Source: a virus
Lineage: Duplodnaviria; Caudoviricetes
IMG/VR virus record: IMGVR_UViG_3300037722_000238
Span: 1 to 38,096 of that record
DNA: 38,096 nt
Strand: one strand, 5' to 3'
A model generated the notes under the pieces. The model was not told the origin of the DNA. It searched no databases and saw only the letters and a list, made by a program, of their open reading frames with translations. Positions within the stretch are counted from its first letter, which is position 1. Every line of letters starts with the position of its first letter. Positions 10,653 to 27,448 of the stretch are shown in pieces. Both the position numbers and the translations under genes were made by a program.

Positions 10653-10888
10653 GCCGCCCTCCATCCACCCGCGAGCGCCAGCCTCGCCTGCCGTCCAATG
10701 TGGTCGAGCTTCGACCATTCGCCTCGGCTGTTCTCCGCGGCGGCGTACCGCATCGCCCTGCCGCCGAGAACATGGGCGTTCCTCCAAGCCCTCGACGCGT
10801 ATCCGGCCGGGGTCAGGGTTCCTGATTCGAGGTAGTGCCCGCAGTTCGGATCGGCCTGGCCCCAGTCGGCACAGAAGATGCAGGTCAT
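10649..10888 (-). CDS. Hypothetical protein
   Basis: Start MTCIFC overlaps the Cro stop. Confidence 0.6.
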   Translation of the reverse strand: MTCIFCADWGQADPNCGHYLESGTLTPAGYASRAWRNAHVLGGRAMRYAAAENSRGEWSKLDHIGRQARLALAGGWRAA

Positions 10889-11106
10889 GCGACGGCCTCG
10901 AGCGCCGCTTCGTGCCAGCGGCGGATCGTGTCGCGGCCTACCTCGACGGCGCCGTCGGTGATCTCTGCGATTGCGTCTGCGATGTCCTTCCAGGAGGCCG
11001 GTGGGTCTTCGTCTCGTTTGTCTGCGATGAAGGAGAGGATGGGGTAGCCGGGTCCTCTGGTTCTGAAGATGACGTCGGCCATGTCCCGTTGCGATGTTCC
11101 AGCCAT
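10885..11106 (-). CDS. Cro-like HTH regulator, first gene of the early lytic operon
   Basis: SWKDIADAIAEITDGAVEVGRDTIRRW HTH; divergent from the repressor. Confidence 0.75.
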   Translation of the reverse strand: MAGTSQRDMADVIFRTRGPGYPILSFIADKRDEDPPASWKDIADAIAEITDGAVEVGRDTIRRWHEAALEAVA

Positions 11107-11143: not shown

Positions 11144-11197
11144 GCATCTTGCTCGTGACTGACGAGACCGCTTGACACGTGGTGCGCAAGGTGCGTA
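11122..11197. promoter_or_regulatory. Two putative operators TGCGCAAGnnnCGYA (11122-11136, 11183-11197)
   Basis: TGCG-N7-CGCA and TGCG-N7-CGTA, each lying in the -35/-10 spacer of one of the divergent promoters. Confidence 0.6.
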
Positions 11198-11201
11198 TAT
11201 T
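11172..11201 (+). promoter_or_regulatory. Sigma70/SigA-type repressor promoter
   Basis: TTGACA-18 bp-TATATT upstream of a GAGAGGA RBS and ATG 11239. Confidence 0.7.
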
Positions 11202-11238: not shown

Positions 11239-11706
11239 ATGAAACGGGAAGGCATACCGGGGAACCCCGAAGTAGCGCGGCGGGTCAAAATGGCCCGAGC
11301 GGGCGCAAGCATGAGCCAGACAGAACTCGCCGTGCAGTGTGCGAGCATCCTGAACCACAATGGGATCAGCCGCAGCATCATCAGCCGCGTCGAATCGGCC
11401 GACCGCGACGCTGAGGGCCGCCTGCTAGCTGCCATCGCCCTCGCCACCGGCACCGACTACAACTGGCTCAACGAGCCGATCCATCAGATCGTCGCCGTCG
11501 AGAAGGAGGCACAGAGTCTTCGCGACCTGAGTGCAGATAAGCCGCTTTATCTGAATTCCTACCCCGCCCCGCTCCCCCGCGACCACCCCGACAACGCCCT
11601 CGTCACAGCCGGATGGCTCCAACGTGACGACATGATGCACCTACCGAATCCAGACTACTGGACCGGTCTACAAGCCGAAACACTCCCCATCAAGGTGGCG
11701 GTATGA
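11239..11706 (+). CDS. Immunity repressor (XRE-family HTH) with long C-terminal tail
   Basis: RVKMARAGASMSQTELA...ISRSIISRVESADR...LAAIALATGTDYNWL; divergent from Cro and upstream of the integrase. Confidence 0.85.
   Translation: MKREGIPGNPEVARRVKMARAGASMSQTELAVQCASILNHNGISRSIISRVESADRDAEGRLLAAIALATGTDYNWLNEPIHQIVAVEKEAQSLRDLSADKPLYLNSYPAPLPRDHPDNALVTAGWLQRDDMMHLPNPDYWTGLQAETLPIKVAV
11530..11557 (+). other. dif-like recombination site (candidate attP core) inside the repressor gene
   Basis: AGTGCAGATAA-GCCGCT-TTATCTGAATT has 11-6-11 architecture; each arm matches E. coli dif (GGTGCGCATAA-TGTATA-TTATGTTAAAT) at 8/11; perfect CAGATAA/TTATCTG inverted repeat. Confidence 0.65.
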
Positions 11707-11885
11707 CCGCCAGCATCTACCGCATCAACGGCGTCGAATACAAGATCGAACAGCAGGGCCGCATCTGGGAGGTCTACGCCGACTGCGACTGTGCGCTCGG
11801 TCCGCACTGGCATCTCCTGGTGCGCACACGGACACGGAACACAGCCGAAACCCACATCAGATTGCCAGCAAAGGTCCCCGCCTGA
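11703..11885 (+). CDS. Small hypothetical protein between repressor and integrase
   Basis: ATGA-coupled to the repressor. Confidence 0.65.
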   Translation: MTASIYRINGVEYKIEQQGRIWEVYADCDCALGPHWHLLVRTRTRNTAETHIRLPAKVPA

Positions 11886-11929
11886 ACGGGTACGCGGATC
11901 TAGTACCAGAGGCCCATCGACTCGACTAC

Positions 11930-12757
11930 ATGTCGGTTCATCCTGTGTGGATGGGGGAATACCGGAATTTCCTGATCGCCCACACCCGCACCGACAACAC
12001 GATCCGCAACTACGAGATGCGACTGCGCCAAGCGGAAGCCTGGTGCGACCAGCGGGGGCTACATCTCGCCACCCTCAACGCCGAAACGATGAAGGAGATG
12101 GCCGAGGCGTTCCACAAGTCCCACACGGTTCGCGGCCAGTTGAGGTCCGCCCTCAAATACTTCTATCGGATGAAGGGGATCGACGCACCCCTCGGCGCGA
12201 TCCCAGTCCCCACCCAGCCGCAGGGAAGGAGCAGAGCACTCGAACGCGAACGGGCGACACTCCTGCACAAGACGGCCCGATACTGGGTGCCGGAAGGGAC
12301 CGCCGTCATGTTCGGGCTTTACCTCGGGTTGAGGGTCACAGAGATAGCGTCGGCGCAGTGGTCCCGCTTCGATCGGGAGATGAGCTGGTACACGGCGATC
12401 GGCAAAGGCGACCGGACACGGGAACTACCCGTCCATCCGACGCTCCTTGATGACCTTCGGTATGTTCGACGGCGCGGCGACTTCGTTTTTCCCGGTCACG
12501 CCGGACGGGTCCATGTCACTCAGGGCACCGTCTGGAAGTGGTGTATGAAGGTGGCGGAGGAAGCGGGGATACCGCGGATCACCACTCATGAGCTTCGGCA
12601 CACGGCTATCACAGAGGTCTACGATCGGACCGGTGATTTACTCGCGGCGCAAGCATTCGCGGGACATACGAGACCGGACACGACGAAACGTTACACCCGG
12701 AAGAACGTGACCCGCCTGGTAAACGCTGTCTACGCCATCAATTACGAGGATGAGTGA
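11930..12757 (+). CDS. int: XerC/XerD-like tyrosine recombinase (integrase) lacking an arm-binding domain
   Basis: 275 aa; GLRVTEI (R), GKGDRTR (K), HELRH (HxxR), AFAGH (H), TTKRY (Y); N-terminal core-binding domain with NTIRNY. Confidence 0.92.
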   Translation: MSVHPVWMGEYRNFLIAHTRTDNTIRNYEMRLRQAEAWCDQRGLHLATLNAETMKEMAEAFHKSHTVRGQLRSALKYFYRMKGIDAPLGAIPVPTQPQGRSRALERERATLLHKTARYWVPEGTAVMFGLYLGLRVTEIASAQWSRFDREMSWYTAIGKGDRTRELPVHPTLLDDLRYVRRRGDFVFPGHAGRVHVTQGTVWKWCMKVAEEAGIPRITTHELRHTAITEVYDRTGDLLAAQAFAGHTRPDTTKRYTRKNVTRLVNAVYAINYEDE

Positions 12758-13656
12758 GACGGTTCCTTCTAGCCTTCGTCGTCATCCTTCTCGGATGCTG
12801 GCATGTGTCCGGAGGGTCAGACGACTTCCGTATGGACGCCCTCGTCGCCCGTCAAATGGTTCTCGGGGAGTCCCCGCATGTCCCCGTCTCTGAACTTGGT
12901 GGGACTCTGGACGTGGCCGCGTTCCGCACCCCGATTGCTATAGCCCTGTCTGTCCCGTTCGTCTGGTTCACAGACACACAGTTAGTGCCGATGGCGGCGG
13001 TGTTCGTCGCGCTGACTGGGGCACTGTTTCTCCGAGTGTTGAACCGGCCGTGGTGGTGGGGGGCGCTCATCGTCGTGTGGCCGTTCTCCGAGGTGGACCG
13101 ACATGGCAAGGCCACGTTCCTCGTCGGAGCCCTACTGATCGGGGCAGCTCTGCTTCGACCGAAGTGGGCGGGGTTGTGTCTCGCCTTGGCGGTCGGGCTG
13201 CGACTGTGGCCTGCCGTTGTGGCGGTCGGGTTCCTCATGTCGGGACGATGGCGTACTGCGGTGTGGTCTGCGGGCTGGTTCGCCGGTCTATCCACCCTGA
13301 TTGTCGCTACGACGACGGTGAGCGTTGAGGGGACAGTGACGGCGTTGTCTCAGGACGTCGGGTATGTGGACGGGTTCAATCTGGCACCGTTGCGGAACGC
13401 CCCTTCTTATGTGCTGCCGGTGGGTGTGGTCCTTTTCGCTTGGTGGGCGTGGGGGAAGGATTGGCGGCGGGCGTTCCGCTGGTCAGTGCCGGTGGGGCTG
13501 CTGCTGTCTCCGCTGGTGTATGCGGCTTCGCTTCCAGTGTTGGCGGTGGCAATAGGAAAAGCCCCCCGATTCTCCCGAAGGAAAACCGAGGGGCCAAGGG
13601 AAGACCTACCCCGTATGTACTCGCAGGAACGGCTCAGCCCTCACGATCCAGGCTAG
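12754..13656 (+). CDS. Multi-pass membrane glycosyltransferase, GT87/DUF2029-like (GT-C fold)
   Basis: DDF..ALVARQMVLGESP, F.TP.AIALSVPF, P..EVDRHGK, AGLCLALAVGLRLWP and NLAP motifs plus many hydrophobic helices; GTGA overlap with int. Confidence 0.6.
   Translation: MRRFLLAFVVILLGCWHVSGGSDDFRMDALVARQMVLGESPHVPVSELGGTLDVAAFRTPIAIALSVPFVWFTDTQLVPMAAVFVALTGALFLRVLNRPWWWGALIVVWPFSEVDRHGKATFLVGALLIGAALLRPKWAGLCLALAVGLRLWPAVVAVGFLMSGRWRTAVWSAGWFAGLSTLIVATTTVSVEGTVTALSQDVGYVDGFNLAPLRNAPSYVLPVGVVLFAWWAWGKDWRRAFRWSVPVGLLLSPLVYAASLPVLAVAIGKAPRFSRRKTEGPREDLPRMYSQERLSPHDPG
13557..13594 (-). terminator. Intrinsic terminator of the late operon
   Basis: Minus strand GCCCCUCGGUUUUCC-UUCG-GGAGAAUCGGGGGGC-UUUU: 15-bp stem (G-U pairs valid only on this strand), UUCG tetraloop, U-tract. 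Confidence 0.85.
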
Positions 13657-27408: not shown

Positions 27409-27448
27409 CGCAGTCCATCCCGCGCGATACCGCGCGGGATGGACTGCG
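27409..27448. terminator. Perfect 18-bp inverted repeat after the capsid gene (attenuator or mRNA stabiliser)
   Basis: cgcagtccatcccgcgcg-atac-cgcgcgggatggactgcg; no U-tract. Confidence 0.65.

Follow-up and report, generated by a model that had tools for sequence, protein, structure and literature searches.

In the phages BPs, Brujita and Charlie, the attP site lies inside the repressor gene, and integration removes a repressor tail with an ssrA-like end (Broussard and Hatfull 2013, PMC3694055; Villanueva 2015, PMC4557955). The same accounts describe a divergent cro-like gene and a repressor followed by an arm-less integrase. The known switches BPs, MabB and CyranoPS use tRNA cores of 35-40 bp, which belong to the tRNA's 3′ half where this was checked. 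The MabB prophages of M. abscessus (PMC9934374) and corynephage CyranoPS (bioRxiv 10.64898/2026.10.29.762952) share with the locus described here an attP in the repressor, a tRNA target and an arm-less integrase, but, as described there, their cores are 40 bp and 35 bp long, respectively. The 3′ ends of tRNA genes are also used by bifidoprophages (PMC6109161). Integration at the 5′ part of tRNA genes is known and was described as much rarer than at the 3′ part (Zhao and Williams 2002, as cited in PMC6563490 and PMC1635311); in the sections of the two citing papers that deal with such elements, these are not tied to a repressor switch or a tRNA-derived stop codon. Arm-less phage integrases have been described as a subgroup (bioRxiv 10.1101/542381).

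The DNA analyzed here, called the window, is a whole viral record of 38,096 bases. It comes from a temperate tailed phage and contains genes for a terminase, portal, head protease, tape measure and endolysin. No tRNA genes were found over its entire length. The features of the repressor–integrase module are given in Table 1. As in BPs, Brujita and Charlie, a repressor is followed by a co-oriented arm-less tyrosine integrase and preceded by a divergent gene, whose cro role is positional only; here, an extra ORF intervenes between repressor and integrase. The divergent gene product had no match in Pfam or PHROG. Its closest Atlas clusters are unnamed small proteins, many of them viral, and a homolog is located near the repressor end of the prophage contig G004:C20. 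With this intervening ORF, the claim of the preliminary description that no excisionase is evident is tentative. Directly 3′ of the integrase, a GT87 membrane glycosyltransferase is encoded (12754-13656, + strand), which may modify the host surface in lysogens.

Table 1. Coordinates of the features of the repressor–integrase module and the attP site in the window.
Feature	Position	Strand	Remarks
73-aa gene	10885..11106	-	divergent; putatively cro-like from its position
Promoter-like site of the repressor operon	11172..11201	+	11/12 match to sigma-70 consensus; consensus match only
XRE-type HTH repressor	11239..11706	+	155 aa, predicted to be 103 aa in the prophage; tail of 52 aa ends VAV
attP left arm	11530..11540	+	putative integrase-binding arm; the 28-mer tops the family matrix built without this site
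attP core GCCGCT	11541..11546	+	same hexamer as tRNA-Thr(TGT) nt 1-6 in G112 and G369 (host genomes)
attP right arm	11547..11557	+	mimic of tRNA nt 7-17
60-aa ORF between repressor and integrase	11703..11885	+	missing in most relatives
Arm-less tyrosine integrase	11930..12757	+	start probably 11951

The recombinase was examined by domain search and alignment. It consists of a core-binding domain, which begins at residue 11, and a catalytic domain. The residues R135, K159, H220, R223, H246 and Y255 are invariant among 42 aligned relatives. This agrees with the earlier claim that all catalytic residues are present and that an arm-binding domain is absent. The start at 11951 would probably give a protein of 268 aa. 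The integrase scored 77.5 bits against a curated cut-off of 335 bits for XerC and 65 bits against 330 bits for XerD, both far below, and judged on these cut-offs it is neither XerC nor XerD. The BPs-type integrase, as described in PMC3694055, has a C-terminal proteolysis tag, whereas the C-terminus of the window integrase is acidic, ends in YEDE and has no ssrA-like tag. An AA end was observed in some relatives. Nearly all integrase relatives from named genomes belong to Actinomycetota, and because most come from Acidimicrobiia bins, this class is the presumed host group. Some relatives are longer (P0024, P0039, P0048 and P0052; 386-444 aa), and three of these have extra N-terminal sequence resembling a second core-binding domain.

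The preliminary description had drawn attention to an AT-rich 11-6-11 site in the repressor gene. The position of this 28-mer (11530-11557, repressor codons 98-107) was confirmed, as was the hydrophobic tail that follows it. The site has a GC content of 39%, compared with 62% in the gene. Each arm is indeed identical to the dif site of E. coli MG1655 at 8 of 11 positions, as read from its sequence record; none of the six spacer positions is identical to the dif centre. No other site in the window, and none in 10 pair-shuffles, has both arms at least 8/11 identical to dif. The reported 9/11 symmetry of the arms is correct but common, with ten such 11-6-11 palindromes in the window. A perfect 11-6-11 inverted repeat is located at 27415-27442, 3′ of the capsid gene, and is probably a terminator.

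An alignment of 42 integrases was used to fetch 218 loci, and 116 sequences, including the window, were found to hold a close relative. In 53 of the 116, a co-oriented HTH gene ends less than 600 bases upstream of the integrase; an HTH profile was built from 38 of them. The HTH proteins of the relatives have a common short peptide motif after the HTH domain, followed by a short tail. At the DNA level, the motif corresponds to an 11-6-11 site whose arms are conserved and whose GC-rich spacer varies. In a frame-blind scan that used the arms only and from which similar sites were held out, the best site fell into a single reading frame in 42 of 46 distinct repressor loci. Conservation across repressor homologs, proposed earlier as a check of the site, was found for the arms and the frame, with a spacer that varies. 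Holding out entire spacer classes left the site at the top rank in 31 of 47 loci and at the second rank in another 11. The window 28-mer ranks first of 76,138 positions under a matrix made from the other 47 family sites, and the same result was obtained with the arms alone. Of 46 repressor tails, 25 end in AA, 9 in VA and 5, including that of the window, in AV, and these ends resemble the ssrA-type tags of BPs-type repressors. The repressor head encoded in 11239-11706 is nearly identical to those of L002 and L003, which are joined to different tails and cores; this suggests module exchange between phages at attP. Single-sequence locus searches of viral contigs with the window integrase and repressor gave no match.

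The spacers were compared with the 5′ ends of 79 ARAGORN-called tRNA genes from host-class genomes and loci, with 35 different starting hexamers among them. The spacer equals nt 1-6 of an Acidimicrobiia tRNA in 47 of the 48 distinct sites and for 11 of the 12 spacer types. Among 2726 hexamers used in this register as a control, only 44 (1.6%) equal a tRNA start. Since the hexamer of the window joined the tRNA set via a targeted search, the independent figure is 46/47. The count of 47/48 leaves out five loci without a placeable motif (L013, L010, L012, L071 and L153), one of which (L013) was later found in register. The tRNA types indicated by the spacers are Val (25 of 48 sites) and Asn (14), the remainder being Lys, Thr, Arg, Ala or Val/Lys. 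The right arm resembles nt 7-17 of the tRNA, except that a sense codon replaces the TAG present at tRNA nt 8-10. In the window, this place is occupied by repressor codon 104 (TAT, 11548-11550). The T-loop motif was found in 0/48 family sites, which argues against a long core copying the tRNA 3′ half; the repressor of phiGD34-2, in contrast, contains a tRNA 3′ half in antisense. An antisense match of the site to tRNA 5′ ends was also considered and rejected, as the match runs in the sense direction. In the repressor gene at L012:3833-4204, the start of a tRNA-Phe is copied almost perfectly, in a frame that departs from the family rule; this repressor would need another stop.

Integrated relatives were found. 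In the 39.5-kb prophage G001:C1 (39,642 bases), homologs of the terminase and tape measure lie between the two ends. At one end, host DNA is followed by the core, an orphan tail ending in AA, and the integrase. At the other end, the repressor runs into a complete tRNA-Asn and stops on its nt 8-10 (TAG). The two ends have only tRNA nt -1 to 6 in common. The viral record G002 has the same two ends, with a repressor split at tRNA-Asn and the tail and integrase opposite. Its tRNA-Asn (L308:273-345) lacks three bases of the 5′ acceptor strand, with the frame kept; either a deletion or a fault in the assembly may explain this. Of 36 positions compared in the host-side flank of G002, 34 agree with the leader of the native tRNA-Asn in G180; the other end matches the G180 tRNA-Asn and the DNA beyond it. 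G180 thus represents the empty site. Both ends of the contig G004:C20 lie within a core identical to a further tRNA-Asn start; one end carries the repressor head and the other the tail and integrase. A further attL-like end, behind a -10-like box, was found in L066. In these relatives, the crossover is at the tRNA start, the repressor is ended by the TAG of the tRNA, the tRNA remains whole, and the tail and integrase come to lie behind the host leader. The preliminary description had suggested an attP inside the repressor, used by an arm-less integrase, with loss of the hydrophobic tail on integration, and G001, G002 and G004 are split exactly at this site. It had also suggested integration at dif or a dif-like site, and this part is not supported, as the relatives sit at tRNA-Asn. 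All integrated cases found are at tRNA-Asn and none at tRNA-Thr, and an integrated copy of the window phage was not among them. When 401 genomes of the class were searched with a junction pattern, 14 tRNA starts were obtained, and a repressor lies upstream only in the known G001 case. Three junction patterns gave no match in viral contigs.

Integrases of the same clade were also observed in other settings. In the non-phage elements L061, L065, L073, L074 and L075, which lack the repressor layout, a tRNA-Asn, -Gln or -Phe start faces the element; their second ends were searched for and not found. In L161, L173, L193, L205 and L226, clade integrases lie downstream of a co-oriented tRNA. Host ORFs in L219 and L346, which we take to resemble LAGLIDADG endonucleases, also read in frame into the TAG of tRNA-Asn.

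It is hardly credible that the site is a relic or a chance palindrome at which the phage does not recombine. The number of equally symmetric palindromes in the window would fit this explanation, as would the contigs of 8 runs, where only the unsplit form and no junction at the core was present among the junctions listed. It is contradicted by the first rank under the independent family matrix, by the intact catalytic residues of the integrase, and by the relatives split at this same site.

In the case of the window itself, the core GCCGCT begins a tRNA-Thr(TGT) gene in G112 and G369, with a -10-like box just upstream in each. Such a start is uncommon: one true tRNA was found in 251 class genomes and two in 81 genomes of the G112 family. 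Because it was found by a targeted search, the tRNA-Thr match of the window is partly circular. Five of six distinct tRNA-start candidates with this hexamer were rejected since they are not tRNAs. None of 401 genomes contained the exact 14-mer that has T at position 7 of the tRNA. The rarity of the matching tRNA-Thr in the sample would be expected if the core served another six-base target, either a tRNA of another kind that begins with this hexamer in a host outside the sample or a site that is not a tRNA. The closest integrase relatives (70-73% identity), which are not tied to DNA, also leave room for such a target. We nevertheless consider it very unlikely, as the only true tRNAs found with this start are Thr(TGT), and the spacer of the relative L005 is the other common Thr(TGT) start.

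The target proposed in the preliminary description was the host dif site or a dif-like site. IMEX elements, e.g., CTXphi, integrate at dif, borrow the host XerCD, and match the dif core. The window site is similar to theirs in its 11-6-11 structure and Xer-like arms, which resemble XerC and XerD boxes, but the phage encodes its own integrase, and the core matches a tRNA start rather than a dif centre. Host genomes were searched with a pattern that we assumed for dif, and the resulting sites are dif-like by pattern match alone. They were found in 50 of 121 genomes (57 rows) and in 44 of 131 genomes (45 rows) of two overlapping samples. The second sample includes two unpublished genomes, on which no claim rests. 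The spacer of the window was present in none of the 57 and none of the 45 rows in either orientation.

The proposal that this family member was retargeted to host dif, or uses host XerC/XerD at its attP, gains from the arms of the site. Among the 48 sites, only this one has both arms 8/11 identical to E. coli dif, and its dif-arm score of 25.7 is an outlier (the next is 14.6; real sites score 31-40). The arms agree better with those of host dif-like sites (6-9 and 7-9 of 11 positions) than with the tRNA-Thr D-arm (6-7 of 11). Furthermore, host dif-like spacers vary widely in Acidimicrobiia. However, none of those in the two samples is that of the window, while the family spacers follow tRNA nt 1-6. 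With the tRNA-type family matrix, too, the site takes the first rank, and it keeps the family frame. In a quick tree, the window integrase is placed within a group of relatives whose cores are of the Asn and Lys types, separate from an outgroup taken to be chromosomal and Xer-like. None of the relatives was found at dif, and the G001 prophage and the G001 dif-like site are on different contigs. Retargeting to dif is thus quite unlikely, and the likeness of the arms to dif likely reflects Xer-like DNA recognition.

We conclude that the window very probably encodes an integration-dependent immunity switch, in which the phage's own arm-less integrase would join the six-base core in the repressor to the first six bases of a host tRNA, probably the tRNA-Thr(TGT) of an Acidimicrobiia host. 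The integrase is predicted to recombine the GCCGCT core with the start of this gene. After integration, the 155-aa repressor would be replaced by the 103-aa form, with nt 8-10 of the tRNA (TAG) serving as the stop. The lost tail may be a ClpXP-type degron, in which case only the repressor form made in the prophage would be stable. A TAnnnT box upstream of the core is present in no more than 15 of the 47 sites, and a replacement promoter conserved in the family is therefore not evident. For this reason, we suppose that the tRNA in the prophage would be transcribed from the phage repressor promoter at 11172-11201. At the other prophage end, the host tRNA promoter would face the integrase. No strong hairpin was detected between attL and the integrase in three relatives or before the integrase of the window. 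The conserved D-stem region provides the right arm; exchanging the six-base core would therefore likely suffice to send the phage to a different tRNA.

RNase P cleaves immediately 5′ of tRNA nt 1. The repressor message would therefore lose its stop codon, and on this basis lysogeny might be wired into host tRNA metabolism. One transcript would be both repressor mRNA and pre-tRNA, the removal of the repressor stop by RNase P would lead to tmRNA tagging, and the host tRNA promoter would drive the integrase. We regard this scheme as possible but tentative. If it were true, the growth state would set induction, and with an essential tRNA under the repressor promoter the cell would depend on prophage transcription.

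The proposed switch differs from the BPs type, as presented in PMC3694055, in that about 6-8 bp at the start of the tRNA form the shared core and the repressor reads into the tRNA in sense, with nt 8-10 as the stop. In the account of CyranoPS (bioRxiv 10.64898/2026.10.29.762952), the integrase loses its promoter, whereas the window integrase would face that of the host tRNA. Fionnbharth and the cluster L phages, as reported in PMC10865867, are similar in the very short common core at a tRNA gene, but there the tRNA is broken and replaced by a phage tRNA, and an arm domain is part of the integrase; the tRNA here remains whole, and the window carries no tRNA. In the literature searched, with subscription journals and supplements outside it, neither a repressor that stops on tRNA nt 8-10 nor this Acidimicrobiia clade was found to be described. 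This variant of integration-dependent immunity, targeting tRNA starts, is likely new, though such a literature result is no proof of novelty.

Programs that detect prophages by long repeated tRNA 3′ ends would probably overlook sites of this kind. With the promoter swap, an answer that can be tested is available for a question raised for the BPs type (PMC3694055, in the part that treats it), i.e., how the integrase is expressed and excision triggered without an excisionase. A small integrase that is retargeted through the core alone could serve as a tool for actinobacteria. Changes of six bases appear to have given access to at least five types of tRNA, as judged from the spacer matches (Val, Asn, Lys, Thr, Arg, Ala). 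This phage clade appears to use a highly conserved stretch of tRNA both as an integrase-binding arm and as the stop codon that switches the repressor on.
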